The notes: generated from the letters alone by a model not told the origin. Counted from the stretch's first letter, positions 5,121 through 23,539 are shown. The stretch: 24,000 nucleotides of DNA from Acaryochloris marina S15 (GCF_018336915.1 NZ_CP064923.1:1150653-1174652); one strand, 5' to 3'. Made by a program: numbers and translations.

Positions 5121-7562
5121 ATGCGTATCTCTCTCAATTGGCTTAAGGATCTAGTCGATATCGATCTGTCACCCGAAGACCTGGCAGAACAACTGACTCT
5201 AGCTGGTTTTGAAGTCGAGGATATTGAAGATTTACGCACTTGGGCGGATGGCGTTGTGGTGGGAAAAGTTCTAACCTGTGAGTCCCATCCCAATGCTGAT
5301 AAACTGCGGGTTTGCACCGTTGATATTGGTGAAGCAGAACCATCTCAAATTGTCTGTGGTGCCCCCAACGTCAAGGCCGGACTGTTCGTTCCCGTTGCTA
5401 CCTTGGGCACCTACTTACCCACACCTGACTTAAAAATTAAAAAAGCCAAACTCCGAGGCGTCCCCTCTGCGGGCATGATTTGCTCTCTTACCGAACTGGG
5501 TTTAGAAAGCGAGATTGACGGTATCCATAGCTTTGATGCGGATGGCGTAGCAGTTGGAGGGGATGTTCGTCCCCTCTTAGGACTGGATGACGTCATCTTA
5601 GATCTGACCTCCACTGCTAACCGTGCCGATGCCCTGAGCATGGTCGGGGTCGCCCGTGAAGTTACGGCGCTGACAGGAGCACAGCTGAAACTACCGACCA
5701 CGCCCAAACTAGATATTCCGTCGGGCAAAGACATCAAAGTGGAATTGCCTGACTCTGAAGCCTGCCCTGCCTATATCGCCACTGTTCTAGAAGGCATCAC
5801 CATCGCCCCTTCTCCAGACTGGCTGCAGCAACGACTGATTGCCGCTGGCACTCGCCCCATTAATAATGTGGTGGATATTACCAACTATATTTTGCTGGAG
5901 TGGGGACAGCCCCTCCATGCCTTTGATGCTGATGCCCTCGACGCTTTAGGGAAGAAACAGCCCCTAACTTTGAGTGTACGTCTAGCTAAAGCAGGTGAAA
6001 CGCTTACGACCCTGGATAGCCAAAAGCGTGAGCTGCAAGAACAAACCCTGGTGATTACCGCTAATGATCAGCCTGTGGCATTAGGGGGCGTTATGGGAGG
6101 AGAAGATACGGAAGTTAAAGACACTAGCACCCGCTTGGTTCTTGAAGCTGCCCTATTCAACTCTCTGGTTATTCGGCGCTCAGCTCGTAGTCAAGGCTTG
6201 CGAAGTGAAGCCTCTGCTCGCTATGAACGTGGGGTGAATGAATCTCAGCTAGAAACCGCCTGCTTACATGCCCTGCAATTATTGGTAGATCTGACAGGAG
6301 CCAAGGTGGTGGCCCAACAGCGAGCCGACCATCGCAAATCCCTAGAACGGTCGATTGAGCTGCGTCTGGATCGAGTCAATCATGTGTTGGGTAAAGTCAA
6401 AGGCAAGCAAGGTGAACCTACCGACTTAACGGACAAGGACATTCTACCAATCCTCAAATCCCTTAGTTTTGATACCACCCCGACCGATCGATCTGAGACT
6501 TGGACTGTCACAGTGCCGCCTCATCGTCATAGTGATATCGAACGGGAAATCGACTTGGTGGAGGAAATTGCTCGACTGTATGGCTACGACAATTTCTGTG
6601 AAACCTTACCTGCTAAAACCGAGTTAGGAAGCCTATCCAGCCAGGATACTTTGGCCCGTAAACTTAGAGAAGCCTTCCGAGCGGTGGGTCTCACGGAGTT
6701 GATCCATTATTCCTGGGTAAAGCCTGAAGGTGACGAGCAGGTGGTGGTGGTAAATCCATTGCTAGTAGAGTTCTCCGCTCTGCGCACAGAAATGCTCACT
6801 AGCCTGCTCAATGCCTGCCAGCGGAATTGGGAACAGGGTAATGGAGCCTTAAATGGCTTTGAAGTCGGTCAAGTGTTCTGGAAAGACGGCGAAAAGCTGA
6901 AAGAAGCTCGGGCCATTGCAGGCATTCTGGGGGGTGACCCTGCCCAAGGCAAATGGATGCGCACCGCAAATCAGGACTATGCCATGACTTGGTTCGAAGC
7001 CAAGGGCTTACTGGAGCGAGTGCTGAACCAGTTGGGATTGTCTGTGACATTTCAGTCAGATTGCCCTGATGAACGGTTACATCCTGGGCGAACAGCCGCC
7101 CTGCTCTCCCAGGGAGCGAAGTTAGGCTATTTTGGCCAAATTCATCCTCAGGTGCAGCAGGACCGGGATTTGCCAACAGTCTATGTGTTTGAGCTGAATT
7201 TAGATCTGCTGCTAGAACAACTCGCCCGACTGCAAACCAAGTCAACCCTGTTCTCCACCTATTCTACCTATCCAGCCGCCGATCGGGATTTGGCTTTCTT
7301 TATCCCCACGGATATCACCGTTGCGGAAATCGAAAAGGTGATTCGCAAGGCGGCAGGTGGCCGCAAGCAATCTCTGCTCACGGCCATTGAGCTATTTGAT
7401 GAATATCAGGGGGAGCATGTGCCAGACGGGCAGCGGAGCTTGGCGTTTCGATTGCTGTATCAGGCCTGCGATCGCACCCTCACAGACGAAGAGGTCAACC
7501 CCATCCACCAAAAGGTACGTGACGCCCTCGAAAAACAGTTCAAGGTTAGCCTCAGAAGCTAA
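5121..7562 (+). CDS. pheT: Phenylalanine--tRNA ligase beta subunit
   Basis: 813-aa ORF. The N-terminus [12 protein letters not shown]... and the tRNA-binding region [26 protein letters not shown]...QIVCGAPN are textbook PheT. B3/4, B5 and C-terminal anticodon-binding-like regions follow (...SLAFRLLYQ...TLTDEEV). Confidence 0.97.
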
Positions 7563-8884
7563 GTCAGCTGACTTTCCGCTTTCTCGGGAAGTTTCACAAT
7601 AATTTGATTGCGGCCATTGACTTTGGCCTCATAGAGAGCTGCATCCGCAACCGCCACCAAGTTCGTCGGGTGATAAATCGGTTGGGGAACGGTACTAGCA
7701 ACGCCAATACTCAAGGTGACGTGATCGGCCACCTCCGACTGCAAATGCTCAATCTGCAAATCGAGCATGGCCCGCTGGATTTTCTCTGCTACCAGGCAGG
7801 CCTGTTTATGATCTGTATTGGGCATGATTACTGCAAACTCTTCTCCCCCATACCGAGTCGCTAAGTCCCCCGTCCGCCTGACATTGGCATTAATCGCACG
7901 GGCAATTTTTTGGAGGCAGTGATCCCCCGCTTGATGGCCATAGGCATCATTAAAAAGCTTGAAATAATCGGCATCACACATAATTAGGGCCAAAGGTCTC
8001 TGTTGGCGCTGCATCCGCCGCCATTCTTGCTCCAACACCTGATCAAAACACCGCCGATTAGCTAGTTCAGTCAAGCCATCCAGATGGGCAAGGCGATTCA
8101 AGGCAGCGGTCTTGGCCTCGACCTTAGATTGCAAAATTTGATTGCTATTTTGTAAATAACTAATCACCAGGATGAGACTTGTGACTGCCAGACAACCAAT
8201 TACAATCAACGTGGTCCAGATACTCTTTAATCCTTCTTGAGCCTGGGCAACAAAGGCATCAATGGGCTGCGTGATTTCTATAACCCCGCGCACATCACCC
8301 ACCTGCCAATCGGTTTTAGGACTACCCGGCCAAGTGTTATGACACTTGACACAGCTCGGTTCCATTTGGACGGCTTCGGCATAGCGAAACAAGAGGTGCT
8401 CCTTCTCCTTCGCTTTTTGGTAGTAGAAGCCAGTCGGATCTTGCTGTAAATACTTCAGAGCCTTCTGTTCAAAGACATTTTGGGGCCCCCCTGATCCTTG
8501 ACGATTGGGAAAAGGATAGTCACTAAATAAGCGAAAAGATAGACCGCTTTCCGATTGGCTGACCCGCTCTCCTAATTCAATCGTAAAAGTTGCGGGTACT
8601 GGGATGCCACCCGTTATTTGATGGTACTCAGGACTTGCCGTCACACTGTCTACATCGTCCAAACGCCCCACCACAGACTGGCTGTAAAGGAGCCACGCTT
8701 CCTTGACCGTATTCACAGAAACGCGCGCATGTTGAAGCGCTTGGGCATCCACTAAATCTGCCGACAACTCAAAGGTGCCAGAGAGGGCAACCCCCGTCCC
8801 AATGCAGAGCAGTAGCACTAGGATTAGCGCTATCCGTTGATACAACCAGAGTGTTAGCTTCCGAAACCGCTGCAAATTAGACAA
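7559..8884 (-). CDS. Membrane-anchored diguanylate cyclase (GGDEF) with periplasmic CxxCH haem-c sensor domain (Tll0287/DUF3365-like)
   Basis: N-terminal TM helix [17 protein letters not shown]. The sensor region carries CVKCH. A second TM helix follows ([19 protein letters not shown]). The GGDEF domain has the active site RYGGEEF and an RxxD I-site (RTGD) five residues upstream. The start codon at 8884 is TTG with no nearby in-frame ATG, so the exact start is uncertain. Its stop TAG (7559..7561) overlaps the pheT stop TAA (7560..7562). Confidence 0.88.
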
Positions 8885-9350
8885 GCCCCCAAAAGTTCAG
8901 CCTGCAGAGATAGCAAAGACAAACCTCAACTTAGTGATGACACCGAACTTTTCCGATTCACAGCAATCACTTAAGGGAAAATAATGCAGAGTATAACCAA
9001 TCGTTTACTGCTAGATTAGACGTCTTCAAGATGTCTGTAGTCTTGGCTGTTACTGACTAAAAATAGCGGAATAACACCCAGACTAGGTATCAAACAGTTC
9101 CTCAATGGTTAGATATAAAGCTCACCTGTTAATACCCATTAATTATAAAGACCGATTCGCCCAAATGCCCCATCAAACAGAGAAATTAGCGAATAAATAT
9201 ATCCCTTTCTTTCTGTCTAGAAATTAAAATACTTGAAGATCGCAATTTACTCTTGCAGTAAGAATTTGATCATAATCGAGCTCACAGACAGCTTTATCTT
9301 CGCCACGCTAGGCTAGAGACAGTATCCGCACCAGATATTTGGGAGACCAT

Positions 9351-10160
9351 ATGGCAGTGAAAACTAGCGTTTTTTCTCACGTCCTTTCACCTTCTACAAG
9401 GCGATATCGCATCTCTCGCCTCGTAACAGTGTTGGCAGGGCTATGGGTAATCGGTAGTGTCCTGTGGAGTCCAACGAGCCACTATGCAGAGGCTCTAGCA
9501 GGCGTTGCTTATACTGATCCCGCCATTTACCAAGAGAAGTCGGGATATAGCCTAGATGGAATTAATAAAGTCTATATGGGGCGAGAAATTGCCCAAGTCA
9601 TGGGCCATCAAGGAGCTGGATGGCTAGAGCGATCGGGGCGGGCCAGCAGTGAACAGCCTCGACGCTTAGTGGAAGCCCTCAACTTAAGCCCTAAGGATGT
9701 GGTGGCTGATATTGGGGCTGGGACAGGTTACATGAGTTTTCGGATGACGCCCCTACTCCCGGAAGGCAAGGTGCTAGCCGTAGATCTCCAGCCAGAGATG
9801 GTGGAAATCCTCAACTATTTCAAGGAAGAACGCCAAATTGATAATTTAGAGGCAGTTTTGGGGGCCGAACAGAGCCCTAATTTGCCTGACAAGAGTGTCG
9901 ATTTAGTACTGATGGTGGATGCCTATCACGAGTTTGCCTTTCCCAACGAAATGATGACCGGCATTGTTAAAGCTCTGAAGCCAGGGGGCAGAGTGGTATT
10001 AGCGGAGTATCGGGCTGAAAACCCGCTGGTGATGATTAAGCCGTTGCACAAGATGACGCAAAAGCAGGTCCGCAAAGAGATGCTAAACGTGGGCTTAGTG
10101 TGGCAAGAAACTAAGAATCTATTGCCCCAACAACATCTGATGTTTTTTGAGGCGGCTTAG
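9351..10160 (+). CDS. Class I SAM-dependent methyltransferase with N-terminal hydrophobic anchor
   Basis: Motif I is VVADIGAGTGYMS, followed by an acidic motif II (VLAVDLQPEM) and VDLVLMVDAYHEF. The N-terminus has a hydrophobic segment LVTVLAGLWVIGSVLW. I placed the start at ATG 9351, preceded by GGGAGA at 9341..9346. The track start at 9339 is TTG. Confidence 0.85.
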   Translation: MAVKTSVFSHVLSPSTRRYRISRLVTVLAGLWVIGSVLWSPTSHYAEALAGVAYTDPAIYQEKSGYSLDGINKVYMGREIAQVMGHQGAGWLERSGRASSEQPRRLVEALNLSPKDVVADIGAGTGYMSFRMTPLLPEGKVLAVDLQPEMVEILNYFKEERQIDNLEAVLGAEQSPNLPDKSVDLVLMVDAYHEFAFPNEMMTGIVKALKPGGRVVLAEYRAENPLVMIKPLHKMTQKQVRKEMLNVGLVWQETKNLLPQQHLMFFEAA

Positions 10161-10200
10161 GGTCTGATCTGGGGGTGCGATCGCAAACCCAGATCAGACC
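10161..10200. terminator. 40-nt hairpin immediately after the methyltransferase stop, with a HIP1 site at its apex
   Basis: ggtctgatctggg (10161..10173) is the exact reverse complement of cccagatcagacc (10188..10200). The 14-nt apex ggtgcgatcgcaaa contains the palindrome tgcgatcgca. No T-run follows, so an intrinsic-terminator function is not certain. Confidence 0.4.
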
Positions 10201-10290
10201 ATCTCCACTGTTGAAGTGATCCCACTCATGACGTCTGAGAACGAACATGCCAAGATAGGGCTGAGAGTCGGGCATTGGAGTCCACCATTT

Positions 10291-11607
10291 ATGCGTCTAC
10301 AAGTTCAGGGTGTATGGGTCTGTATTGGGATCTTGCTAGGGGTACAATCAGCATCTGCCCAGTCTGCTATCCCCAATAGTTCTGTATCGGTTTTGCAGCA
10401 GGACGAAACTGCAAACGCTCCTAAACATCCTGGTGTTGCCAAACTGAGGGCGCAAGGTCCGGCCGGACTACACCGTTTTTTGAAAGACCATGCCCAGGAA
10501 TTGAAATCTACGGCTGAACTGCCTGCTCCATTCCTAAGGAGACAGCTCGATGCCCTCTGCCAGCAGAGAGACTGCCATGCATCCCAGCTCTATTGGCATA
10601 GGAATTTTGCCAAAGCTCAAGCAGAAGCCAAGACCAGCAATAAACCCATATTGTCTTTGCGGTTATTGGGAAATTTGGATGAAGAACTGAGCTGTGCCAA
10701 TAGCCGATTCTTCCGGGTGGCGCTGTATCCCAATGCCGAGGTTTCCCAATATTTACGCGAACGGTTTGTGCTGCATTGGGAGTCTGTCCGCCCTGCCCCG
10801 GTTATGACCATCGATTTTGGAGATGGTCGCCAACTCAAGCGCACCGTCACGGGCAACAGCATCCACTATGTGCTGGATGCCGAAGGTCGCCCCCTAGAAG
10901 CCTTACCTGGCCTCTATGGTCCCCAAGCCTTCCTGCAGCAATTACAGCGAGCTGACACTCTATGGCAGCAAACTGTAACCCTGACAGGGCAAGACCGCCA
11001 ACAGGCCCTGCAAACCTATCATCAACAGCGACTGGAAACGATTCAAGCCGATTGGGTTCAAGATCTACAAACAGCGGGAATCAAAGATGTTCCGGTCCTG
11101 AGAAAGCTGCCAGATGGCACGACACCGACGGCAGTGGATGCTGCCCCCATTGCCATCACCAAGTCCCTGGTGGAGATTCCCTTAGTGTCTTCGTCTATGA
11201 ATCTCTCTATTTTGGCCAACCAAAATCGCACCCAACTCAGCGAAGCCACTCAACCTCAGACCTGGGGGAAATTGGCGGCCTTCCAGGCCGATCGAGCACG
11301 GCTGGATCAGAATAGCAAAGTGCTAATGCAGAGCAAGAACAACGCCTACCGTTCCCCTGAGCAGTTGGCCAAAACGGTACAAAGCTTTGAGCAAGCGATG
11401 GCTATCGATACGGTCCGCAACGAGTATCTACTGCATTCGCGCCTGCATCAATGGTTTGTGGAGAGAAACCAAACAGAATCGATTTCACAACTGAATGAAA
11501 AGGTCTATGCCGAGTTATTTCTAACACCGAGTTCTGATCCCTGGTTGGGATTGGTATCACCGGATATCTACAGTGGAATTGAGGGGGATGGGATCGAGCT
11601 TCAGTAG
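10291..11607 (+). CDS. Exported hypothetical protein with a thioredoxin-fold-like region (degenerate CxxC)
   Basis: ATG at 10291 yields a classic signal peptide, MRLQVQGVWVCIGILLGVQSASAQS, with GGAG 11 nt upstream. The track start at 10216 is GTG. The region WHRNFAKAQAEAKTSNKPILSLRLLGNLDEELSCANSRFF...VSQYLRERFVLHW resembles Thioredoxin_7/DUF255-type domains but has LSCANS in place of WCxxC. This family assignment was made by eye only. Confidence 0.55.
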   Translation: MRLQVQGVWVCIGILLGVQSASAQSAIPNSSVSVLQQDETANAPKHPGVAKLRAQGPAGLHRFLKDHAQELKSTAELPAPFLRRQLDALCQQRDCHASQLYWHRNFAKAQAEAKTSNKPILSLRLLGNLDEELSCANSRFFRVALYPNAEVSQYLRERFVLHWESVRPAPVMTIDFGDGRQLKRTVTGNSIHYVLDAEGRPLEALPGLYGPQAFLQQLQRADTLWQQTVTLTGQDRQQALQTYHQQRLETIQADWVQDLQTAGIKDVPVLRKLPDGTTPTAVDAAPIAITKSLVEIPLVSSSMNLSILANQNRTQLSEATQPQTWGKLAAFQADRARLDQNSKVLMQSKNNAYRSPEQLAKTVQSFEQAMAIDTVRNEYLLHSRLHQWFVERNQTESISQLNEKVYAELFLTPSSDPWLGLVSPDIYSGIEGDGIELQ

Positions 11608-11990
11608 TCTGCTTGAGACCGAGGCCACAGCATCGCCAACCCTCGCTGACCGTATCCAAGGATGGCCAAGACGGTCTGTCTCATGCTGCGAGGATGGAAG
11701 CCTGCCCAAGCATTAAAGCCTAGGCACACCATGGCGATGGTGAACAGAATATAGGTGGGAGCCATAATCACACCGATGATGAGCCAAGACAGATCGTGAA
11801 GCGCTAACAAGACTGCTGCCAAGCTAGAGAATCCAATACTGATGTGAATGGATCGAGGCGAATGGTCTCGGCTCACCTTATAAACGCTTAAGGCTGTGGA
11901 CAAAATATTGATGGGGACTAGGGATGCACAAATGCCAACACAGTTGCATCGGGAGAAGTCGAGAAGAGCGTTAAAACTAAGCATGTTCAT
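11601..11990 (-). CDS. Small hypothetical integral membrane protein (3-4 predicted helices)
   Basis: Hydrophobic segments GICASLVPINILSTALSV, IGFSSLAAVLLALHDLSWLIIGVIM and ILFTIAMVCLGFNAWAGF. The track start at 12041 is TTG. I prefer ATG 11990 (MNMLSF...); ATG 11984 is also possible. Its 3' end overlaps the convergent upstream gene by 7 nt. Confidence 0.45.
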   Translation of the reverse strand: MNMLSFNALLDFSRCNCVGICASLVPINILSTALSVYKVSRDHSPRSIHISIGFSSLAAVLLALHDLSWLIIGVIMAPTYILFTIAMVCLGFNAWAGFHPRSMRQTVLAILGYGQRGLAMLWPRSQADY

Positions 11991-12097
11991 CGTTCTATCA
12001 TGTTTAAGAGATCGATGCTGCGAATTGCAAAAGCTAAGCAATAATACTTAATCTGCGTTGATTCCCATAGTCCTAGATTTCGGTGAGGTAATCCCTG

Positions 12098-12475
12098 ATG
12101 AGTTCGTCCCCAACCTTAGGCCCAATCCATCCCCTGGTTCCCGCTGGAGAGGATTTGGAGCCTGCGATTGCATTCTACGAACAGAAACTCGGATTCAAGG
12201 TCATCCACCGGGAAGGAGATCCCCTCAGACTGGCGGTGGTTCAACGGGATATGTCCGTCATCTATCTGTGCAAAAACAGCTATCAAAATTTGGGCAGTCC
12301 CACCAGCTTAAGAATCCAGGTCAACGATATTGACCAACTGTTTGCTGAGTATGAAGCGAAAGATGAAAGCATCGTCCGGGAAAAACTGGCAGTCAAACCC
12401 TGGGGACCGAAAGAATTTGTGGTTTATGACCCAGTCGGTGGTTGCTTAACATTTTTTGCCATGCCTGGTAATTAG
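12098..12475 (+). CDS. VOC-family (glyoxalase / bleomycin-resistance fold) protein
   Basis: The 125-aa size and pattern are typical of single-domain VOC proteins: IHPLVPAGEDLEPAIAFYEQKLGFKV...LRIQVNDIDQLFAEYEAK...LAVKPWGPKEFVVYDPVGGCLTF. ATG start with GAGGT 9 nt upstream. Confidence 0.75.
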   Translation: MSSSPTLGPIHPLVPAGEDLEPAIAFYEQKLGFKVIHREGDPLRLAVVQRDMSVIYLCKNSYQNLGSPTSLRIQVNDIDQLFAEYEAKDESIVREKLAVKPWGPKEFVVYDPVGGCLTFFAMPGN

Positions 12476-12604
12476 CCTTCCTAAAAAGGGCTTGGCATAC
12501 AAAGCAAGATGGACACACCTGAATCATGAGGTGTGGGGGCAAACCACCCGACATGCCGCAAGACTGAGTTAAACAAGCTAGATTTCTAGAGGTAACAGTG
12601 CTGC

Positions 12605-13213
12605 ATGCTAGGTTTACCCTTCGTTCATTGGTTAGTCATCCTCAGTGTACTGATCAGTACAGCCGGTGCCTTCGCCTATATTCGCGACACCTTATCAGGT
12701 AAGACCCAGCCGAACCGGGTGTCCTGGTCCATGTGGGCCTTGTCCCCTCTGATTAGTACCGCAGCGGCATTGTCAGCAGGCGCTGATGGTTGGGCCACTC
12801 TTCGCATTTTTATTGCTGGCTTACTGCCCCTGCTGATCTTTTTCGCTTCATTCATCAACCAGCGCAGCTACTGGAAAATGGGGGTCTTTGACTTGAGCTG
12901 TGGTGCGTTCTCACTGCTGGCGGTGATTTTATGGGCTGCGATCGCATCTCCGCAACTGGCAATTCTCTGTGCCATCATCGGCGATATTTTTGCCTCTTTT
13001 CCGACGTTAATTAAGACCTGGAAATACCCAAACACCGAGACAGGCGCTATGTTTTTTGCCAGTCTCCTCAGCGTGTTATTGGTTCTGCCCTCAATTCCCG
13101 TGTGGAATATTGCGAATGCCGCCTTTCAGATTCACTTATTGATTATGAGTTCACTGCTGCTATTTGCTGTCTACCGCAAACCCATTCAGAGACGATTTCA
13201 CTTTTCCAAATAA
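12605..13213 (+). CDS. Hypothetical polytopic membrane protein (about 6 helices)
   Basis: 202-aa ORF with ATG start, almost entirely hydrophobic helices (LVILSVLISTAGAFAYI, WALSPLISTAAALSA, IFIAGLLPLLIFFASFI, AFSLLAVILWAAI, LAILCAIIGDIFASF, FFASLLSVLLVLPSI, IHLLIMSSLLLFAVY). I recognise no family. Confidence 0.6.
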   Translation: MLGLPFVHWLVILSVLISTAGAFAYIRDTLSGKTQPNRVSWSMWALSPLISTAAALSAGADGWATLRIFIAGLLPLLIFFASFINQRSYWKMGVFDLSCGAFSLLAVILWAAIASPQLAILCAIIGDIFASFPTLIKTWKYPNTETGAMFFASLLSVLLVLPSIPVWNIANAAFQIHLLIMSSLLLFAVYRKPIQRRFHFSK

Positions 13214-13577
13214 TAGCTGTTTTACACCTTCCAGAATTATTGGTCCATTTTTCAAAATTTATATCGAATAATTCTTGAGTTTCCAGTAAGGGAAGGTCTC
13301 GATTCTCTTGCAAGCTTTTTCTGTGAATGTGAATACAAAACACTATTTTAAGAGTAGGTGAGTTACGTTCTTTATCAGGAACCAGAGCTATCAAGATGAG
13401 AAGTATAACGCTAACTCTATGGCATTTTTGACTAACAGATACAGTTTCTGAATGACTTAACCTCCCTCAACCGAGTTAAACTTATTCGAAGTGGAAAAGG
13501 CAAATCAAAATGTCGATTTATGCCACAATTTGGGACGCCATCGTTATGCGACGATGCAAGCTAGGATTCAGAATAAA

Positions 13578-14699
13578 ATGACAAAACGTTTTCGCATCGC
13601 ACTTTCATTTGCAGGAGAAAAAAGGGATTTTGTTGTCCGAATGGCGCATGTCCTTGCAGATCGCTTTAGCGCAGACCAAATTCTTTATGATAAGTTTCAC
13701 GAAGGAGAATTTGCCTGTAGTAATCTCGCCTTTCATCTTCCCTCGCTTTACCAGAATGAAGCCGATCTGGTCGTTGCTATCCTGTGCAATAACTACAGCG
13801 AAAAAGAGTGGTGTGGCCTTGAGTGGAACGCTATATATAGTCTGATCAAACAGGGTAATGTAAAACAAGTCATGCTTTTACGCTTTGACAGGGTCGAACC
13901 TGCAGAATTGTTCGGTCTTGCTGGTTTTGTTGATCTGGATGATAAGACACCAGAAGAAACAGCTGCACTTATTCTCAGTCGCCTTGCGATTAATAAAGGG
14001 CAAAAGAAGGATTACTATCTTTCGACAAACTCTATAGATCTTGATTGGCCTGATGTCACCCCTGTGCTTGACTGGCCTGTGGCAAATCATCGTGAAGCGA
14101 AGCTTGCTTTTGCAAAGCTAATTACGCATAGAGCACCATTCAGAATACTTCCCATCTACGGTCCGACAGAAATAGGCAAGACTCACTTAACAAAGCAGTT
14201 TCTCCGACATGCATTTAAAATTCCGGGATTAACTTGCGGACGCCTAGACTTCAAAGGCTCTACAGACATAGACACAGAACTGCGGATTTTTGCACAGAAC
14301 CTCAAGGTTGAGACCCCATCTGGTAGTGTTGTCAGTCAACTTTCTCAAATCTTTACTTCCCTCCAAAAGATAGCGCGTCCCACTCTCCTTATTTTCGACA
14401 CGTTTGAGATGGCTGGAGAAGCAGAGAACTGGATGCAACAAAGTCTACTCCTCTCCATCATTCGCGAAACTTGGCTACGTGTTATCGTAGTTGGCCAACA
14501 ACCATTGAAAGTGCATGGAGAACCCTGGGATGGAGCAAGTGCCTCACCCATAAAGCTTAGCGTACCTAATCCAGAAGAATGGTTTGAGTTCGGCCAGACT
14601 TACAAGCCGAACCTCACGCTTGAGTTTGTTCGCCAAGCTCATGATTACGCTGGCGGCAAGAGTGCGATACTTGCCCAACTGATAGGGCCTTCGGAGTAA
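13578..14699 (+). CDS. TIR domain fused to a P-loop NB-ARC-like STAND NTPase (NBD plus ARC1-like helical part)
   Basis: N-terminal bacterial TIR pattern: RFRIALSFAGEKRDFV...ILYDKF...DLVVAILCNNYSEKEWCGLEWNAI, where the conserved Glu in WCGLEW is the putative NADase catalytic residue. Walker A is IYGPTEIGKTHL. Walker B is PTLLIFDTFE. A sensor-like strand is LRVIVVGQQ. NB-ARC-like motifs follow: IKLSVPNPEEWFEF and a GLPLA-equivalent AGGKSAILAQLIG. I placed the start at ATG 13578 (MTKRFRIALSFAGE); the track start at 13491 is GTG. Confidence 0.85.
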   Translation: MTKRFRIALSFAGEKRDFVVRMAHVLADRFSADQILYDKFHEGEFACSNLAFHLPSLYQNEADLVVAILCNNYSEKEWCGLEWNAIYSLIKQGNVKQVMLLRFDRVEPAELFGLAGFVDLDDKTPEETAALILSRLAINKGQKKDYYLSTNSIDLDWPDVTPVLDWPVANHREAKLAFAKLITHRAPFRILPIYGPTEIGKTHLTKQFLRHAFKIPGLTCGRLDFKGSTDIDTELRIFAQNLKVETPSGSVVSQLSQIFTSLQKIARPTLLIFDTFEMAGEAENWMQQSLLLSIIRETWLRVIVVGQQPLKVHGEPWDGASASPIKLSVPNPEEWFEFGQTYKPNLTLEFVRQAHDYAGGKSAILAQLIGPSE

Positions 14700-14704
14700 C
14701 CCCC

Positions 14705-16306
14705 ATGAACTTCACTGAACAACTCCGTATTCTCAAAAATGCACAAGGTGACCCAGCAGCTCTCGTTCTTGCTAGTGTCGATATCGCCTATTTCACACTT
14801 ACTGAGCCACAGCGTCAATCAATTAAACAGGCATTAATCGCTGCTGCTATCCCGCACTGGTGTGATTCCGACCTGCTTGTGGCTCTGCTGGACACAACAC
14901 CTGATAAGGGAGACATCTTATTCGATTATTTGCGCAAACTCACAGTTATTGAACCCTTTCCTGCACGTGGAGAGAAAGCCATGAACGTTCACGAGTCTGC
15001 TCGCCTGACCTTGCGGGATTATTTGCGGAAGACAGACCCCGCTCGCTGGGTTCAACTTTCCACAAATGCCTGGAACTACTTAAACGAACACACTGAGACT
15101 CATGCTCGGATCGAAGCACTCTACCACTTGTTTGCGACCGATCAAATAGCTGCTGCAGCCGAATGCGAACTGCTAACTCAGGAAATCACACATTCTATGC
15201 AGCCTGAGAATACTACTGCACTCTCCCTTGCTCTGGAGGAACTAGCTAATGCCAGCTGGCTCAAAGGAGCAGCCCGAGTGGAAGCACTACTAGCCACTTT
15301 TGAAGTTCGTAGTTTGCGCGGAGACACTGCCCAACTGGAGGATCAAGCGCTTCAAGTTATGAATCTTGCTCATGCAACATCCCGTCAATCAGGAATTTCC
15401 CGGGCACAGTGCCTTCTAGGAGACATCTACCAAACAAAAGGACGACTGGATGATGCGCTCAAAGCATTCAATGAATACCTCTCTATCTGTCAGAATCTGA
15501 CTTCAGCCGATCCGTCTAACGCAAAATGGCAGCGTGATCTCGGCGTCGCGTATGCGAGGACCGGAGACATCTACCAAACAAAAGGACGACTAGATGATGC
15601 GCTCAAGGCATTCAATGAATACCTTTCTATCTGTCAGAATCTGATTTCAGCCGATCCGTCTAACGCAGTATGGCGGCGTGATCTCGGCGTCGCGTATGCG
15701 AGGACCGGAGACATTTACCAAACAAAAGGACGACTAGATGATGCGCTCAAGGCATTCAATGAATACCTTTCTATCTGTCAGAATCTGATTTCAGCCGATC
15801 CATCTAACGTAAAATGGCAACGTGATCTCGGCTTCGCGTATGTGAGAACTGGAGACATCTACCAAACAACAGGACGATTGGATGATGCGCTCAAGGCATT
15901 CAATGAATATCTCTCTATCTTTCAGAATCTGACTTCAGCCGATCCGTCTAACGCAAAATGGCAGCGTGATCTCGGCGTCGCGTATTCGAGGACCGGAGAC
16001 ATCTACCAAACAATAGGACGACTGGATGATGCGCTCAAGGCATTCAATGAATACCTTTCTATCTTTCAGAACCTGACTTCAGCCGATCCGTCTAACGCAG
16101 TATGGCAGCGTGAACTCGGCGTCGCGTATTCGAGGATCGGAGACATCTACCAAACCCAAGGACGACTGGATGATGCACTCAAGGCATTCAATGAAGACCT
16201 CTCTATCTTTCAGAACCTGACTTCAGCCGATCCGTCTAACGCAGCATGGCAGCGTGAACTCGCTGTCGCGCATGCGAGGATCGGAGGCATCTATAAGGCC
16301 CTCTAA
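14705..16306 (+). CDS. STAND winged-helix/ARC2-like region plus TPR-like repeat sensor (partner of the upstream TIR-NTPase)
   Basis: The ATG lies 5 nt after the upstream stop, with GGAG at 14693..14696 (8 nt upstream). The N-terminal ~230 aa resemble the WH/ARC2 part of NB-ARC proteins (IAYFTLTEPQRQSIKQALIAAAIPHWCDSDLLVALL...LTVIEPFP...MNVHESARLTLRDYL). The C-terminal half has six near-identical 48-aa TPR-like units (GDIYQTKGRLDDALKAFNEYLSICQNLTSADPSNAKWQRDLGVAYART). Confidence 0.85.
   Translation: MNFTEQLRILKNAQGDPAALVLASVDIAYFTLTEPQRQSIKQALIAAAIPHWCDSDLLVALLDTTPDKGDILFDYLRKLTVIEPFPARGEKAMNVHESARLTLRDYLRKTDPARWVQLSTNAWNYLNEHTETHARIEALYHLFATDQIAAAAECELLTQEITHSMQPENTTALSLALEELANASWLKGAARVEALLATFEVRSLRGDTAQLEDQALQVMNLAHATSRQSGISRAQCLLGDIYQTKGRLDDALKAFNEYLSICQNLTSADPSNAKWQRDLGVAYARTGDIYQTKGRLDDALKAFNEYLSICQNLISADPSNAVWRRDLGVAYARTGDIYQTKGRLDDALKAFNEYLSICQNLISADPSNVKWQRDLGFAYVRTGDIYQTTGRLDDALKAFNEYLSIFQNLTSADPSNAKWQRDLGVAYSRTGDIYQTIGRLDDALKAFNEYLSIFQNLTSADPSNAVWQRELGVAYSRIGDIYQTQGRLDDALKAFNEDLSIFQNLTSADPSNAAWQRELAVAHARIGGIYKAL
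15419..16306 (+). repeat. In-frame tandem repeat, 144-bp unit x 6 plus a 24-bp partial unit
   Basis: Units start at 15419, 15563, 15707, 15851, 15995 and 16139, with a partial at 16283. Each begins ggagacat(c/t)taccaaac. By eye the units are more than 90% identical at nucleotide level. A more degenerate unit precedes the array. Confidence 0.95.
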
Positions 16307-16440
16307 TAGTATTACCTGTAGTTATAGAATCTGCGATTGAAGCTCTAATAAATAATCCAGACTAACGCCAGCTATAAACTCTCGCTTTTACTGTTGATGA
16401 CAACAACAGGATGGATCGAATCAACAGGATGACAATCCAT

Positions 16441-16633
16441 CTACAGCAGATTTAAAGCTTTCAAACTCCGACGGGTCACTTCTGCCCGAGCGGGTAAATC
16501 TTTCTGATCATTGATATCGAGATTGGTGGCAAAAAAATAGACATTATCATTTTGCTCTAAGTAACCGACATACCAACCAATGCCAGGCTGCAGTGCCCAA
16601 CCCGTCTTCGCTCGGATGGTGTACTCAGGGGTT
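16441..16633 (-). pseudogene. 3' fragment of a class-D (OXA-like) beta-lactamase / PBP-transpeptidase-fold gene, separated from its 5' part by an IS insertion
   Basis: Minus-strand translation from the duplicated target reads ...EY TIRAKTGWALQPGIGWYVGYLEQNDNVYFFATNLDINDQKDLPARAEVTRRSLKALNLL*. It contains the class-D KTG box. It joins in frame with the 5' fragment once the IS and one TSD copy are removed. Confidence 0.8.
16622..16633. repeat. Target-site duplication (left copy) of the IS4-family insertion
   Basis: tactcaggggtt abuts the left IR. An identical 12-mer sits at 18118..18129, abutting the right IR. The boundary is ambiguous by 1 nt. Confidence 0.75.
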
Positions 16634-18117
16634 CAATGTCACTGACTTAAGAAAGCAGAAAAGGGCTGCAAGTCTTGATAGATATAGAATCAAGACTTGC
16701 AATCCATCAATAATCTGCCTTCTACTATGTCTGAGTCAGCCGAAATTCTCAAGCATCAGTTTTCCCAAAGCCTGGGATTGCCCTGGACGGATATTCTTCC
16801 CGCTTCAAGGCTGACCGACATCCTAGCAGAGGAATCAATCTCCTATCGCAACCGTGTGTATACGCCCATCGTTACGTTGTGGGCCATGCTCTACCAAGCA
16901 TTATCTGCAGACAAAAGCTTGCGCAACACAGTCAAATGCATCACCACCTGGCTCACTGCCGCAGGACTCCAACCCCCATCATCAGATACAGGAGCCTACA
17001 GTAAAGCCCGAGGAAGATTACCTGAGTCCCTGCTGCAACGGTTAATTCCCGAAACTGCTAATCACATAGAGCAAAGCATTCCCCAAGAACACCACTGGTG
17101 TAATCGAACAGTGAAAGTCTATGACGGCACGACAGTGCTGATGGCTGATAGTGTGGCGAACCAAGGGGAGTATCCTCAACATGGCAATCAGGCTCCTGGC
17201 TGTGGATTCCCCATTGCCCGTTTAGTGGTGTTTTTTTGCTTAATCACAGGGGCAGTGGTCTCAGCCTGCATTGCCCCCTGGAGCATGAGTGAAATCGTCA
17301 TCAGTCGGCTGCTTTATGAGGATCTGGAGGTTGATGATGTGGCCATAGCAGATCAAGCCTATGGCAGCTATGTTGATCTAGCCCTGATTCAACAACAAGG
17401 AGCCGATGGGGTTTTACGTAAACATCATGCCCGTCATACAGACTTCCGTAAAGGACGTAAGAACGGGATAGGAGACCACCAAGTTCAATGGCAAAAGCCC
17501 ACACGGTGTCCCGCCCACATGAGTGCAACGGAGTTTGCAGAGATTCCCAAAACGTTGACAGTCAGGGAGGTATCGCTACGTCTATCGCGTCGAGGCTTTC
17601 GAGACCAGTTCATTATCGTCGTCACAACCTTACTGGATGCTCAGCGCTATAGTGCTAAACAATTGACTCGCTTGTACGGATGGCGATGGCAGGCGGCTGA
17701 AGTCAATTTGAGACACCTCAAAACCACCTTAAAGATGGAAATGCTCACAGCAAAGACACCTGAAATGGTGCGCAAGGATATTTGGTCTCATTTGCTAGGC
17801 TACAACTTATTGAGAAGTCTCATGGAACAGGCTGCCCCATGGGCAGAATATGACCGCTCTCGACTCTCTTTACAAGGGGCTCGACAACACTTTAATCAGA
17901 TGCTGGTTTTGTTAGCAACGGCCACACAAGCTATACGTCAACGGTTGTATGCTCATCTGCTTGAAAATATTGCTACTGACCTTCTGCCTGTTCGACCCCA
18001 TCGGCTCGAACCCAGGGTCGTTAAACGAAGACCTAAGCCCTTCCCCAGAATGCGACAACCGCGCTCTGTCCTCAAAGCCAATCTGGCTGCTTGATTAAGC
18101 TTATCTCAGTGCCATTG
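16634..18117 (+). mobile_element. IS4-family insertion sequence (1484 bp), apparently intact
   Basis: 18-bp terminal IRs: caatgtcactgacttaag (16634..16651) against the reverse complement of 18100..18117, caatggcactgagataag (15/18). It has a single transposase ORF and a 12-bp direct duplication of the target. This matches the IS4 group, which has 18-bp IRs and 11-13 bp duplications. Confidence 0.85.
16727..18094 (+). CDS. IS4-family DDE transposase
   Basis: IS4-type N-terminal region (LPWTDILPASRLTDILAEESISYRNRVYTPIVTLWAMLYQAL). DDE-domain stretches VKVYDGTTV and VAIADQAYGSY. C-terminal YREK-like signature LYGWRWQAAEVNLRHLK. I placed the start at ATG 16727; the track start at 16697 is TTG. 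Confidence 0.9.
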   Translation: MSESAEILKHQFSQSLGLPWTDILPASRLTDILAEESISYRNRVYTPIVTLWAMLYQALSADKSLRNTVKCITTWLTAAGLQPPSSDTGAYSKARGRLPESLLQRLIPETANHIEQSIPQEHHWCNRTVKVYDGTTVLMADSVANQGEYPQHGNQAPGCGFPIARLVVFFCLITGAVVSACIAPWSMSEIVISRLLYEDLEVDDVAIADQAYGSYVDLALIQQQGADGVLRKHHARHTDFRKGRKNGIGDHQVQWQKPTRCPAHMSATEFAEIPKTLTVREVSLRLSRRGFRDQFIIVVTTLLDAQRYSAKQLTRLYGWRWQAAEVNLRHLKTTLKMEMLTAKTPEMVRKDIWSHLLGYNLLRSLMEQAAPWAEYDRSRLSLQGARQHFNQMLVLLATATQAIRQRLYAHLLENIATDLLPVRPHRLEPRVVKRRPKPFPRMRQPRSVLKANLAA

Positions 18118-18129
18118 TACTCAGGGGTT
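18118..18129. repeat. Target-site duplication (right copy) of the IS4-family insertion
   Basis: tactcaggggtt, identical to 16622..16633. Confidence 0.75.
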
Positions 18130-18803
18130 TGCTCCACAATCATGATCTCTTTCACCGTTGCGATCGCCCGGTCTGAAAAAGGCAGTTCATTGCGATACAA
18201 ACGCTGAAGGAATTGAATCTGTTCCTTGGGTGAGATCCGTAAATCCCCTGTTAGCCAAAAGGTATCAATGTCATCGGCTTCTCCAATTAATTGGTTGCCA
18301 TAGCCCACCGTGGTTACCCACTGCTGCATCTGCTGAAAGCCAATGCGACGAGCTAACACCTGATAGAACCAGACCCCCGACACTTTAAAAGCCGTTTGCA
18401 GATTGAGGTCCCGATTCCAGGTGGGGATACTGCGTTCCACCCCATCCCAGGTCAAAATCGCCAGCTCATTGGCAATCACCCCTGTCTCTAACGCAATCAG
18501 AGAGTTGAGGATTTTAAAGGTAGACGCAGGCAAAAACGGCTGAGTATTGCGAGTCGAATTGTGCTGATAGGTTCGATTTCGTTTGAGGTCGTAAATCAGA
18601 ATCGAGCCATTGACCTTTAGATCTTGAAAGGGTTGGGCCAGGGAAACATTCTGCTGAACCAATTTAGGGGTGGCTGCTGCCGATGGCTCACCCAGGGGGA
18701 TGGCGGTTAAATATAGACTTGCGATCGCATATCCAAAACATCGGGCAACACAGTACCCTAGATTTTTATCGACATGATTAACCATATTCTCGATGACCTT
18801 CAT
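18118..18803 (-). pseudogene. 5' fragment of the IS-disrupted class-D (OXA-like) beta-lactamase homologue
   Basis: Class-D motifs in order: active site STFK (PASTFKILNSL), SxV (KVSGVWFYQ), YGN (VGYGNQ). The KTG box is on the other side of the IS. The track ORF 18072..18803 ends with 14 residues (NGTEISLIKQPDWL) read from IS sequence. The two fragments total 867 nt, i.e. 288 codons plus stop. Confidence 0.8.
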
Positions 18804-19108: not shown

Positions 19109-19783
19109 ATGCTTCTTCTGCAATTCCTTAAAAACTCAATCTCTATGGTAGAAAGACGAGAATATTGCTGCCGTTCTCCACTGACTTTTCTTTTGGGTGT
19201 GGGATTCAGCCTGTTGCTATCGCTAGCGTTCCTGGCTCCGAGTCAGGCCATTCATTGGGCTGATATCCCTAATCCACGTCAAGACAATAATTGGGTTATG
19301 GATAAAGGGGACATCCTCAGCCTTGAGAGTGAAGCTAAGCTCAATCAGATGATCTCGGCCTTGGAAGCCAAGAACGGGATCGAGATGGTAGTGGTGACTG
19401 TGCCGGAGGTACATCCTTTGGGGGCCACCGAAGAGTTGGCTCAGGCGCTTTTCACCACTTGGAAATTGGGTAAGAGAGGGCAAAATAACGGCGTTATGTT
19501 ATTGGCCTCTAAAAAGGAAGGTCGTGTAGCCATAGAAAAGGGATCTGGTTTACGGTCTGACCTGACTTATGAACAGGTAGATAACATTATTCAGACTCAG
19601 ATCACTCCTCAGTTAGAGCGAGATAATTTTGATGCCGGTGTTGTCAATGGTGCTCAGGCCATGATCCAAATTCTTGAGAATAAAAGCGAAGACTCGATTT
19701 CTTTTTTCCAGATCGTGCTGCTGATGTTAGGGGCTGTAATTTGGGCCTATATCGCTAAAACCCTATGGAAAGTCTTTAGGTAA
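19109..19783 (+). CDS. TPM-domain protein (YgcG/Psb32/TLP18.3-like), short form with C-terminal TM helix
   Basis: Signal-anchor LTFLLGVGFSLLLSLAFLAPSQA, then a TPM pattern: IPNPRQDNNWVMDKGDILS...LNQMISALEAKNGIEMVVVTVPEV...LFTTWKLGKRGQNNGVMLLASKKEGRVAIEKGSGL...FDAGVVNGAQAMIQILE. A single C-terminal helix follows (FFQIVLLMLGAVIWAYIA). The alternative start ATG 19145 is possible. Confidence 0.85.
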   Translation: MLLLQFLKNSISMVERREYCCRSPLTFLLGVGFSLLLSLAFLAPSQAIHWADIPNPRQDNNWVMDKGDILSLESEAKLNQMISALEAKNGIEMVVVTVPEVHPLGATEELAQALFTTWKLGKRGQNNGVMLLASKKEGRVAIEKGSGLRSDLTYEQVDNIIQTQITPQLERDNFDAGVVNGAQAMIQILENKSEDSISFFQIVLLMLGAVIWAYIAKTLWKVFR

Positions 19784-21886: not shown

Positions 21887-23539
21887 ATGTTTCTCACCAG
21901 ACTAAAAAAGCGAGAAAGTTCGCTGCTGACATTCATCTTGGCGTTGAGTTTCAGCCTATTTCTTTCGATATCTTCCCTAACACCGAGTCGGGCCATTCCC
22001 GTATCTGAAGTACCTAATCCACGCCAGGACAACCATTGGGTTATGGATAGTGCGGATATCCTCAGTCAGGAGAGTGAAGCAAAGCTGAACCAAATCATTG
22101 TTGCCAAGGCCAAGCACAGCTTTGAAGTGATAGTGGTAACAGTGCCGGATATAAAGCCCTCAGCTTCGTTAGAGGAGTTTGCAGCATCGCTTTTTGAAAC
22201 GTGGGAAATTGGTAAGCATAGGTTCAACAACGGCATTTTATTGCTGATATCTAAGGATGATCTTCGTGCAGAAATCCAAAGAGGAGAAGGGGTACAGCTC
22301 ATCCTCCCTGATGCAAGGGTGGACAACATTATTCAGACCCAGATCAATCCCTACTTAGAGCAGCGTGAATTTGATGAGGGTATTGTCAATGGCACCCAGA
22401 CAGTGCTTCAGATTCTTGAAAACGAAATCCAAAAATATCGGCAAGAAAGGACATTAGAGGACTACGGAACACCCCTGTCGTACCTACCCGATCCTTTCAT
22501 GCTGGAGATGGAGATAGCGATACGGGATATGGCTTGGTTCTTGATCACTTCAGTTCTGTCGAGTATTGCTATTGCTGTATTGGTCATGACTCCAGCGGTT
22601 GTGTTGATGAGTCTATTCCGTAAAAGTCAAGTTCTGCAGCTGTCTCCAGTGGGTCGGACAACCTTATTCAAGCAAGGTAGTAGATTGCGACTGATGTGGG
22701 GATCGATAACGTATTGGTTACTTACAGGCTATGCATCAGTTTATCCAGAACAACCGACCTCCATCTACAAGGGAATGCACTTTACTAACCCACTCATTCA
22801 AAGTTGGTGGATTCTCTTTGGTCTATATTCAGCGGTAGGGGTGACGTGGTCTTTTGTCCATCCAGTCCAAATGAATCAATTCCAAGGATTTTTGCTGTGC
22901 TGGCTTGGGGTTTGGTTGGGGTATGAACTTTGGTACTGCGTGAAACACAAAGACCCCAGGGGAAGCGAAGCTATGCTTCTTTTTCGTGGGCTGTTCCGCA
23001 GTAGTTTGGTCGCTTTTACTTTAGTGCTGATTGTGGCACGGGTCTTCAAAGTTCCTGGTTTCGAGACTGCATTAATCTTCTACCTCATCACTGCTTTTAG
23101 TGGTGCTTGGGCAGGGATGTTACTCCTGTTGCGATCGCTGACTCGTTACACGGAGGTACGGTGCCAGTCCTGTCATGGTTTGATGCAATGTCTAGATTCT
23201 AAAACCGTAGATAGCTATCTAAAACCAGCAGAAACAGCAGCCAAAATGCTTAAAAGTACTCGCTATGTGGGTTGGGAATGTCCAACGTGTAGCTTTGTTC
23301 ACCCAGAGAGCGACTTCAACATTCGTCTATTTCACGAAGTTGTGAAATCCGAAAAGTTTGGACATTGTAGTGAATGTGAGGCCTATGTTGTGCGTCAAAC
23401 GATTCAGGTTCTTCGACGTCCAAGATGGTTCACTGATGGGGAAACGCTAATTACAAGTCGATGTGTTTGCTGCGATCAGACCTCTGAATCTCACACGAAT
23501 ACTCCCTCCGAGTTCTATCAATTAATGAATCGGTATTAG
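21887..23539 (+). CDS. TPM-domain protein with polytopic membrane region and two C-terminal CxxC...CxxC zinc-ribbon-like modules
   Basis: Signal-anchor plus TPM pattern: VPNPRQDNHWVMDSADILS...FEVIVVTVPDIKPSAS...LFETWEIGKHRFNNGILLLISKDDLRAEIQRGEGV...FDEGIVNGTQTVLQILE. About 6 hydrophobic helices follow. Shared motifs with paralogue 2 are SPVGRTTL and YELWYC. The Cys modules are CQSCHGLMQCLD...GWECPTCS and HCSECEA...RCVCCDQ. Confidence 0.85.
   Translation: MFLTRLKKRESSLLTFILALSFSLFLSISSLTPSRAIPVSEVPNPRQDNHWVMDSADILSQESEAKLNQIIVAKAKHSFEVIVVTVPDIKPSASLEEFAASLFETWEIGKHRFNNGILLLISKDDLRAEIQRGEGVQLILPDARVDNIIQTQINPYLEQREFDEGIVNGTQTVLQILENEIQKYRQERTLEDYGTPLSYLPDPFMLEMEIAIRDMAWFLITSVLSSIAIAVLVMTPAVVLMSLFRKSQVLQLSPVGRTTLFKQGSRLRLMWGSITYWLLTGYASVYPEQPTSIYKGMHFTNPLIQSWWILFGLYSAVGVTWSFVHPVQMNQFQGFLLCWLGVWLGYELWYCVKHKDPRGSEAMLLFRGLFRSSLVAFTLVLIVARVFKVPGFETALIFYLITAFSGAWAGMLLLLRSLTRYTEVRCQSCHGLMQCLDSKTVDSYLKPAETAAKMLKSTRYVGWECPTCSFVHPESDFNIRLFHEVVKSEKFGHCSECEAYVVRQTIQVLRRPRWFTDGETLITSRCVCCDQTSESHTNTPSEFYQLMNRY

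Follow-up and report, generated by a model that had tools for sequence, protein, structure and literature searches.

Here we describe a pair of adjacent genes within a 24,000 nucleotide (nt) stretch of DNA from Acaryochloris marina S15 (GCF_018336915.1, NZ_CP064923.1:1150653-1174652). This whole stretch is hereafter called the window, and positions are counted from its first letter. From sequence and structural models, the pair is probably a two-chain STAND/NLR-like conflict module, serving immunity or cell suicide, whose TIR effector is presumably an NADase. The first open reading frame (ORF1) encodes the TIR domain and a STAND-like P-loop NTPase, and the second (ORF2) encodes a partner subunit ending in tetratricopeptide repeats (TPRs). 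The pair is marked by its domain content, by a split that is conserved across phyla, by the strict pairing of the two genes, by the swapping of effector heads in front of the NTPase, and by a repeat array that is polymorphic in unit number and evolves in concert. The split is real, and it makes the pair a seemingly undescribed two-chain form of an immune receptor of known type. The architecture is solidly documented and the function is plausible. The features of the pair are as follows.

13578-14699, plus strand: gene 1 (ORF1), 373 amino acids (aa), WP_212664818.1; TIR, linker and P-loop NTPase with a helical lid
13578-13997, plus strand: TIR domain, aa 1-140; SFAGEKR loop and putative catalytic Glu82 within KEWCGLEW
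13998-14087, plus strand: linker, aa 141-170; low model confidence, conserved along with the TIR subfamily
14088-14696, plus strand: STAND-like P-loop NTPase, aa 171-373; Walker A, Walker B, VIVVGQ and a helical lid with YAGGKSAIL
14697-14704, plus strand: gene junction; TAA, CCCCC, then the ATG of gene 2 (5-nt gap)
14705-16306, plus strand: gene 2 (ORF2), the partner subunit, 533 aa, WP_212664819.1; ATG at 14705
14705-15034, plus strand: partner N-terminal module, aa 1-110; two helices, then a predicted winged-helix-like fold, with no Pfam match
15035-15418, plus strand: conserved helical TPR-like region, aa 111-238; modelled helix pairs that join the winged helix to the repeat array
15419-16293, plus strand: tandem TPR array; 144-bp unit, 6.1 copies, 92% match, each unit a 48-aa TPR pair (Tandem Repeats Finder)

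A preliminary description of this DNA placed ORF2 5 nt after ORF1, and both ORFs are indeed present, separated by CCCCC and lying in different reading frames. ORF1 runs from the ATG at 13578 to a TAA at 14697-14699. Judged by its homologues this ATG is the true start and an upstream GTG at 13491 is discarded, because the homologues begin M-S/T-K-R-F-R-I-A, with K3, R4, F5 and R6 at least 90% conserved. The motifs quoted in that description (ALSFAGEKR, YSEKEWCGLEW, GPTEIGKT, LLIFDTFE and AGGKSAILAQLIG) can all be read in the translations. The current annotations, obtained by exact protein look-up in Acaryochloris marina, are "TIR domain-containing protein" for ORF1 and "tetratricopeptide repeat protein / LapB" for ORF2. 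Promoter and terminator scans gave counts no higher than the shuffled expectation.

The division into two chains had been described as non-canonical; a survey of homologues across phyla found them split as well, and the split proved to be the hallmark of the family. ORF1 has 299 homologues above threshold, nearly all of 370-390 aa among the 120 matches listed. With the NTPase domain as query, HMMER was run exhaustively on 1.84 billion cluster representatives and returned 288 relatives. In almost all of these the match reaches the C-terminal end of the protein, whatever precedes the NTPase (for example 137-361 of 362, 315-533 of 534 and 1156-1374 of 1376). The partner lies directly downstream in 14/14 genome loci. 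The next gene is always ORF2-like in Cyanobacteria, Burkholderiales, Accumulibacter, Nitrospirales, Vineibacter, Chthoniobacteraceae, Nitrococcus, Planctomycetaceae and Polyangiales, and the pair is present in Cyanobacteria, Proteobacteria, Nitrospirales, Verrucomicrobiota, Planctomycetota and Polyangiales. The reverse search, from the partner N-terminal domain, gave 80 metagenome loci, three of which have no upstream contig sequence and are not assessable. The NTPase gene is immediately upstream in 77/77 of the assessable loci, at a gap of -4 to +27 nt.

Fused versions of the partner domain were not found in the family searches or in large databases, where a 135-aa partner profile returned short family members only. 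All-against-all clustering of six-frame ORFs from ~97 loci, mostly short contigs, revealed no third conserved gene, just the two genes and overlapping shadow ORFs. The split family is defined here by an NTPase that ends at the C-terminus and a partner within ~30 nt that bears PHWxD, ExFxARG...NVHE and TPRs, and the window pair belongs to it.

Genome homologues have intergenic gaps of 1, 2, 4, 5, 6 or 9 nt. Because all three frame relations occur among them, the split is neither a conserved frameshift nor a sequencing artefact. A frameshift or pseudogene was rejected, as the genes have their own stop and start codons and the gaps fall in three frames throughout the family. Programmed frameshifting or readthrough was likewise rejected, since the frame relations of the gap vary among homologues.

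Both genes are constrained yet fast-evolving. Compared with the orthologues in A. marina MBIC11017, the ratio of nonsynonymous to synonymous divergence (dN/dS) is 0.40 for ORF1 and 0.23 for the ORF2 N-terminal domain, 3-5 times the value of two flanking genes (0.07-0.08). The ratio is elevated but points to purifying selection, as is common for conflict genes.

The dS against MBIC11017 (L002) is 0.21-0.31 for the pair (13578-15379) and 0.56-0.77 for the two genes just upstream (12098-13213). The pair thus combines a dS 2-3 times below that of its upstream neighbours with the raised dN/dS. More recent between-strain exchange of the pair could account for the low dS, as could unusual codon constraints.

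The bacterial TIR domain reported at the N-terminus of ORF1 is borne out by Pfam TIR_2 (PF13676), whose match to aa 7-127 (38.8 bits) exceeds the gathering score of 28. The same family is found in most homologues among the 120 matches listed. An alignment of 81 homologues has W78 and W83 invariant and G80, L81 and E82 at least 90% conserved. E82 aligns, weakly (E about 1), to the Glu of SKWCLMEL in the TIR of flax L6, a residue we take to be catalytic. The AlphaFold2 model of ORF1 (pLDDT 87.9) has a TIR-like beta/alpha fold at aa 1-140, and its confidence falls below 50 in the linker at aa 151-154.

The NTPase retains its key residues in the same alignment. G195, G200 and K201 of Walker A (GPTEIGKT), D274 and E277 of Walker B (LLIFDTFE), R301 and G306 are all invariant, and Q307 is at least 90% conserved. 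The model places a five-stranded P-loop domain at aa 172-306 and a three-helix lid at aa 332-369. Foldseek comparison with the PDB retrieves AAA+ proteins generally, including ORC, MalT (8bob) and ZAR1 (6j5t); as modelled the fold class is right, and the matches are not specific. The GLPL-like motif YAGGKSAIL sits in the lid, aligned to ESGGNPLII of single-chain cousins, and the chain stops right after it. The earlier statement that ORF1 finishes at a GLPL-like motif is in agreement with the helices modelled at 332-369 and with the register of the motif. ORF1 appears to carry a STAND-like nucleotide-binding domain (NBD) plus lid, ending just past the GLPL-like helix, because its profile alignment to NB-ARC-positive cousins is in register and the NTPase taken alone aligns at E = 1.4e-5.

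These cousins are single-chain TIR/NB-ARC/TPR proteins of ~800 aa (L020-L087), in which NB-ARC and TPR score above threshold. They share with ORF1 a common TIR subfamily and linker (50-63% identity over ORF1 aa 2-147, with similarity to aa 205-216). The domain order is also the same, and a profile alignment of aa 2-365 against 3-380 has the motifs colinear. The motifs compare as follows.

Walker A: GPTEIGKT in the ORF1 family, GPGGIGKT in the cousins
Walker B (hhhhD-x-x-E): LLIFDTFE in the ORF1 family, LLVVDNLE in the cousins
Sensor-1 position: VIVVGQ in the ORF1 family, AIVTSR in the cousins
GLPL-like motif: YAGGKSAIL in the ORF1 family, ESGGNPLII in the cousins

In hhalign the NTPases alone match with a probability of 80% at 22% identity. 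Unlike the pair, the cousins are one polypeptide, their NB-ARC passes the Pfam cut-off, they have TSR at sensor 1, and the region after the NBD has no significant likeness to ORF2. By these comparisons the ORF1 NTPase is a distinct clade and no recent fragment of the cousins. Because the TIR is much better conserved than the attached NTPase, shuffling of the TIR head between two NTPase clades is suggested. Examples of the cousins come from Lysobacter hankyongensis (L042), Methylomonas lenta (L032) and metagenome-assembled genomes (MAGs) of Bryobacterales and Pyrinomonadaceae; the MAGs L051, L053 and L054 are labelled Klebsiella or Akkermansia. None of the seven single-chain cousins scanned matched a PADLOC system model.

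The N-terminal part of the partner (aa 1-225) is its best conserved portion across phyla, at about 55% identity. No Pfam family matches there, and there is a weak match to TPR-S at aa 191-246. Residues invariant in 26 diverse partners are H51, W52 and D54 (PHWxD), E83, F85, A87, R88, G89, V95, H96, R100 and R104. Within NVHE, the outer residues N94 and E97 reach at least 90% conservation. In the AlphaFold2 model the first 300 aa (pLDDT 93.1, pTM 0.84) start with two helices at aa 3-28. These are followed at aa 34-95 by a helix, short strand, helix, helix and beta-hairpin (helices 34-47, 55-62 and 66-77; hairpin strands 82-84 and 93-95) in the topology of a winged helix. H96 opens the next helix, and helix pairs then merge into the TPR array. 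The sole Foldseek match in the PDB with E <1e-3 is the crystal structure of a STAND-TPR protein (6mfv_A, E = 8.6e-4). We infer a winged helix with an MHD-like His from the predicted structure and the position of the residue, rather than from demonstrated homology.

The six 48-aa TPR-like repeats noted at the end of ORF2 correspond to the 6.1 copies of the 144-bp unit, and TPR_12 matches at E = 1.9e-35. The window array has 6 units and that of A. marina MBIC11017 has 11; elsewhere the number ranges from 1-2 to >15. Position 16 of the unit is K in 6/6 units of the window and Q in 11/11 units of MBIC11017. The variable positions (37, 40-48, 1 and 8) are grouped in one helix. The array is polymorphic in unit number, and the sequences indicate concerted evolution because position 16 is uniform within a strain and differs between strains. 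The array appears to behave like a rapidly remodelled sensor. Fungal NLRs, as Dyrka and colleagues are said to have described in 2014, reportedly have near-identical tandem sensor repeats with unit-number polymorphism, variation at few positions and concerted evolution. Those receptors differ in being eukaryotic, single-chain NACHT or NB-ARC proteins, and the likeness is one of evolutionary mode, not homology. Truncation of ORF2 by the nearby insertion sequence (IS) was considered and rejected, as the C-terminus ..IGGIYKAL matches the MBIC11017 end ..IYEALQ and colinearity runs 330 bp past the stop.

The head attached to the split NTPase is exchangeable. The TIR found here is carried by 53/69 full-length NTPase proteins in the metagenome set, and other members have a different TIR_2, SEFIR, SIR2_2, Trypsin_2, or no head at all. 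The partner of the SIR2 variant is 38% identical to the ORF2 N-terminal domain (E = 4e-60). A Trypco1 gene lies directly upstream of the trypsin variant (contig of P0162). Trypco1 and MoxR/vWA are components of the conflict systems of Kaur et al. 2020 (PMC7159879). Conflict-system STANDs follow this pattern, in which NAD-degrading or proteolytic heads change while the NTPase-plus-sensor chassis stays constant (PMC7159879, PMC13581612). An immune or cell-suicide role of the pair gains indirect support by this analogy, because TIR, SEFIR, SIR2 and trypsin heads exchange on one NTPase module.

Other arrangements were seen in individual contigs. Downstream of the SEFIR-variant pair, at a distance of 1.7 kb, there are genes for a MoxR-type AAA protein and a vWA (CoxE) protein (L090 10049-11239). 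P0140 (304 aa, on a 2.4-kb JGI contig) joins a TIR straight to an ORF2-type N-terminal domain (MNFAEQLRVLQ...) with the NTPase missing, and stems from either a natural deletion or a chimeric assembly. The contig of P0184 (JGI 3300047160, 17.9 kb) encodes a 1376-aa protein with a ParA/MinD-like region, ten TPR_10 units, a TIR and a split-family NTPase at the C-terminus. Its gene lies between two more TIR genes and a resolvase, and no partner-sized gene is found downstream.

STAND/NLR proteins switch by a shift of winged helix and sensor against the NBD. To our knowledge, these parts and the lid are on a single polypeptide in all characterised STAND/NLR receptors (Apaf-1, plant NLRs, MalT, Avs and bNACHT). 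In the pair, the effector would be the TIR of gene 1, presumably with NADase activity, joined to NBD and HD1 of a STAND-like NTPase. The partner from gene 2 would supply the parts that come next in a single-chain STAND, namely a short helical segment, a winged-helix-like domain whose invariant His (in NVHE) sits where the MHD/LHD histidine does, and the TPR sensor. The two genes would be co-transcribed and, given their tight adjacency, probably translationally coupled. The N-terminal module of the partner would complete the nucleotide pocket in trans and keep the gene 1 product ADP-bound and off, with H96 or H51 as the candidate phosphate-contacting histidine. An invader-derived ligand on the TPR array would reorient or release the partner, by analogy with Avs, MalT and Apaf-1. 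Nucleotide exchange, NBD oligomerisation, TIR clustering, NAD+ cleavage and cell arrest would follow, in keeping with established TIR biology. Tentatively, we propose as one possibility that the pair is an obligate two-chain NLR. Its oligomerisation module would be built in trans across the HD1/winged-helix boundary, the sensor subunit would be a detachable lid, activation would come by subunit release or exchange in place of the intramolecular domain rotation known from characterised STAND/NLR proteins, and TPR length, which differs between strains, would tune sensing.

The closest functional analogues appear to be the Avs-type proteins and the single-chain TIR/NB-ARC/TPR STANDs. Avs/AVAST proteins (Gao et al. 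2022; Lee et al. 2026, PMC13581612) share the order of effector, STAND NTPase and mostly TPR-like sensor. Their effectors, including TIR and SIR2, are swapped within families, and activation by oligomerisation is expected. They differ in being single chains with sensors of at least 400 aa, defined by experiment and by family models; the pair spreads the nucleotide-binding module over two genes and has a sensor of 1-2 to >15 TPR pairs. None of the Avs family hidden Markov models (HMMs) in PADLOC-DB 2.0 matched the pair. 'Split proteins' are named only in passing in the methods of Lee et al. 2026 (PMC13581612), for Avs7/Dsr1.

The STAND-TPR protein PH0952 (6mfv), the best structural match of the ORF2 N-terminal model, also has a winged helix followed by TPRs. 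Unlike the pair it is a single chain with its own NTPase and no TIR, and the match is weak (E = 8.6e-4, TM-score 0.36). The iSTAND proteins of the MoxR-vWA ternary systems (Kaur et al. 2020, PMC7159879) place TIR, trypsin or caspase N-terminal to a STAND-derived domain, and these conflict systems are enriched in cyanobacteria and proteobacteria. They are catalytically inactive and always accompanied by MoxR and vWA genes, whereas the Walker A Lys and Walker B Asp of the pair's family are invariant. MoxR/vWA genes were found neither in the window nor at most loci, the one pair being that near L090. We found no account of a STAND family obligately split at the lid/winged-helix hinge in the work on TIR/STAND conflict systems (the TIR-system survey; the BcTir/Tpr preprint; Lee et al. 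2026; Kaur et al. 2020, 2021), and the clade may be listed in the supplementary clade tables of the 2026 census.

Several observations weigh against the interpretation of the pair as a STAND/NLR-like conflict module. In the Pfam scan ORF1 falls below the gathering score of every NTPase family, and NB-ARC is unmatched. The P-loop matches (ATPase_2, AAA_22, AAA_16, NACHT and nSTAND6) are all sub-threshold, with scores against gathering of 12.9 vs 26.7 for NACHT, 12.7 vs 27.7 for nSTAND6 and 17.7 vs 32.6 for AAA_16. The sensor-1 Arg of NB-ARC (TSR) is replaced, VIVVGQ (G306, Q307) being in that position. ORF1 by itself is not a STAND NTPase in the strict sense, which calls for NBD, HD1, winged helix with His and repeat sensor on one polypeptide. 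The NB-ARC-like label of the preliminary description holds for the Walker motifs, the GLPL-like lid and the AAA+/STAND-like model, and fails for the NB-ARC, NACHT and nSTAND profiles and the sensor-1 Arg.

Further points of the same kind concern the partner. Its winged helix comes from a predicted model and one Foldseek match of poor superposition (TM-score 0.36, root-mean-square deviation 19 A). When the ORF2 N-terminal domain was compared by hmmsearch/HMM and hhalign to the part of the single-chain cousins that follows their NBD, no significant match emerged, and sequence searches of the PDB with this domain gave chance matches only. The proposed winged-helix/ARC2-like start of ORF2 is consistent with the modelled topology and the 6mfv match and finds no significant counterpart in the sequence comparisons.

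The surroundings of the pair likewise speak against a defence role. The A. marina locus is a fixed syntenic site among housekeeping genes. Of 97 neighbouring ORFs at 13 non-Acaryochloris loci, most are housekeeping and only a few look like defence genes (GajA/AbiL-type ATPases, additional TIR genes, mad3). The family was not found in PLSDB plasmids, INPHARED phages or IMG/VR. PADLOC-DB 2.0, which had been suggested as a check, returned no system model for the pair or for the single-chain cousins; the best profile scores for ORF1 were PDC-S01 (13.6 bits) and mad8 (12.9 bits), and ORF2 matched best to a generic TPR model. Some loci are island-like, with HigB, an integrase, IS66, an NB-ARC-WD40 gene or a MoxR-vWA pair. 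The question whether homologues sit in variable islands or among housekeeping genes receives a mixed answer: island-like loci exist, most neighbours are housekeeping and defence genes are patchy.

The pair had also been viewed as accessory defence cargo in an AT-richer, HIP1-free stretch next to an IS, and this defence-island argument fails. The locus is colinear with A. marina MBIC11017 over window positions 5524-16633 (~11 kb). The pair occupies a stable syntenic site in at least three A. marina genomes, between the glyoxalase and 202-aa membrane-protein genes and a transpeptidase gene. The IS is a separate insertion in that neighbouring gene, 330 bp past the ORF2 stop, and does not carry the pair. 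The two features involved are as follows.

~16634-18115: IS4-type element (DDE_Tnp_1), transposase ORF 16697-18094; inside the 3' part of a penicillin-binding/transpeptidase-like gene
18072-18803, minus strand: transpeptidase-like gene segment, interrupted by the IS4-type element

The DNA is AT-rich only over the TIR-coding kilobase, GC content falling to 0.41 at 13001-14000 alone. The HIP1-free interval (12945-18160, 5.2 kb) is unremarkable beside similar gaps of 5.1 and 4.4 kb in the window. HIP1 (GCGATCGC) occurs 8 times in the whole window against 0.28 expected from shuffles, at irregular spacing with gaps of 4.4-5.2 kb, a count that fits a cyanobacterial chromosome.

These surroundings would fit a non-immune role, in which the pair is a chromosomal regulatory switch of the STAND type, responding for example to a metabolite or to stress, with the TIR as scaffold or signal enzyme. 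The stable position in at least three A. marina genomes, the mostly housekeeping neighbours in other taxa and the lack of a matching known defence model are in its favour, as is the interspersion of defence and non-defence clades in the STAND phylogeny (PMC13581612). We nevertheless consider it unlikely, given that the exchange of TIR, SEFIR, SIR2 and trypsin, with Trypco1 beside the trypsin variant, is a conflict-system signature (PMC7159879). Some loci moreover lie beside HigB, GajA/AbiL-like ATPases, TIR genes, an integrase, IS66 or NB-ARC-WD40, and dN/dS is 3-5 times that of the flanking genes.

The two-gene build might instead reflect a toxin/antitoxin-like arrangement. Gene 1 would then be an intrinsically active TIR-NTPase toxin and the partner mainly its stoichiometric inhibitor, so that the toxin is set free once the partner is lost, titrated or degraded; the pair would be a guard- or addiction-type module, not a ligand-activated receptor. 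The polypeptides are separate, the genes are tightly coupled and the putative inhibitor is encoded second, and in a dissociable build release is a natural trigger. Some partners have 179-343 aa and one or two TPR units, which is hard to square with a large sensor surface. The most conserved part of the partner, however, is an N-terminal module with invariant polar residues, as expected for contact with a nucleotide site or lid and not for a plug. The TPR arrays are mostly long, variable and sensor-like, and the pair is not on a plasmid or phage in any inspected neighbourhood. On balance this arrangement seems quite improbable.

A Thoeris-like system, on the lines of BcTir/BcTpr (type VIII Thoeris, TIR plus ThsI), would have the TIR make a cADPR-type signal and the TPR protein serve as its receptor or effector. 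Anti-phage operons of TIR and TPR genes do exist (bioRxiv 10.1101/2023.05.26.542521; bioRxiv 10.64898/2025.12.03.692087), and BcTir/BcTpr is, like the pair, a two-gene operon of a TIR protein and a TPR protein. The known TIR proteins have no NTPase, whereas the TIR here is fused to one. The known TPR proteins bear an N-terminal enzymatic domain (glycosidase or nucleoside-processing) that makes or consumes cADPR isomers, whereas ORF2 has no enzymatic or pore domain, with no Pfam domain in aa 1-225 and TPRs elsewhere. In relatives the TIR slot holds SIR2 or a protease, both of them end effectors rather than producers of a signal, and none of the PADLOC Thoeris models matched. A Thoeris-like role is very doubtful.

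That a single-chain TIR/NB-ARC/TPR gene was broken in this strain by a frameshift or sequencing error, as the 5-nt spacing, the differing frames and the ~800-aa cousins might suggest, has a negligible chance of being correct, given the identical split in each relative examined, across phyla and with varied gaps and frames and separate stop and start codons, the purifying selection on both genes, and the mere ~22% identity between the split-family NTPase and that of the single-chain cousins.

If the pair is a two-chain STAND/NLR-like module as we favour, a widespread family broken exactly at the hinge would be a natural experiment on the switch mechanism. It would tell whether the closed state is held between two proteins, whether activation occurs by dissociation, and whether sensors are exchangeable as subunits. 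The candidate bacterial immune systems missed by PADLOC-DB 2.0 would gain a module armed with TIR, SIR2, SEFIR or a protease, and the annotations "TIR domain-containing protein" and "LapB / TPR protein" would be corrected.

Other features of the window were noted. Two upstream neighbours of the pair, a 463-aa ORF at 10216-11607 (plus strand) and the 202-aa multi-pass membrane protein gene at 12605-13213 (plus strand), are conserved in position in A. marina. Their products have no Pfam match, and they were not seen beside the pair in other taxa. MBIC11017 colinearity stops at 16633 and resumes at 18116, with ~13 bp common to both edges of the IS4-type element, possibly a target duplication. No IS terminal inverted repeats were found with the default seed. 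The transpeptidase gene of A. marina AP026075 is broken by an IS630 element, and IS insertion into this gene seems to recur.

On the minus strand, positions 308-4718 hold three paralogous Ser/Thr protein kinase genes in tandem (484, 451 and 490 aa). They match Pkinase at E = 1e-41 to 1e-43, and their C-terminal halves have no Pfam match. At the other end of the window, genes for TPM_phosphatase-domain proteins at 19109-19783 and 21887-23539 (plus strand) lie on either side of two ORFs of 134 and 412 aa. Pfam has no match for the 412-aa product, and the region is not syntenic with MBIC11017, where peptidase S9 and GAF-GerE genes are found instead.

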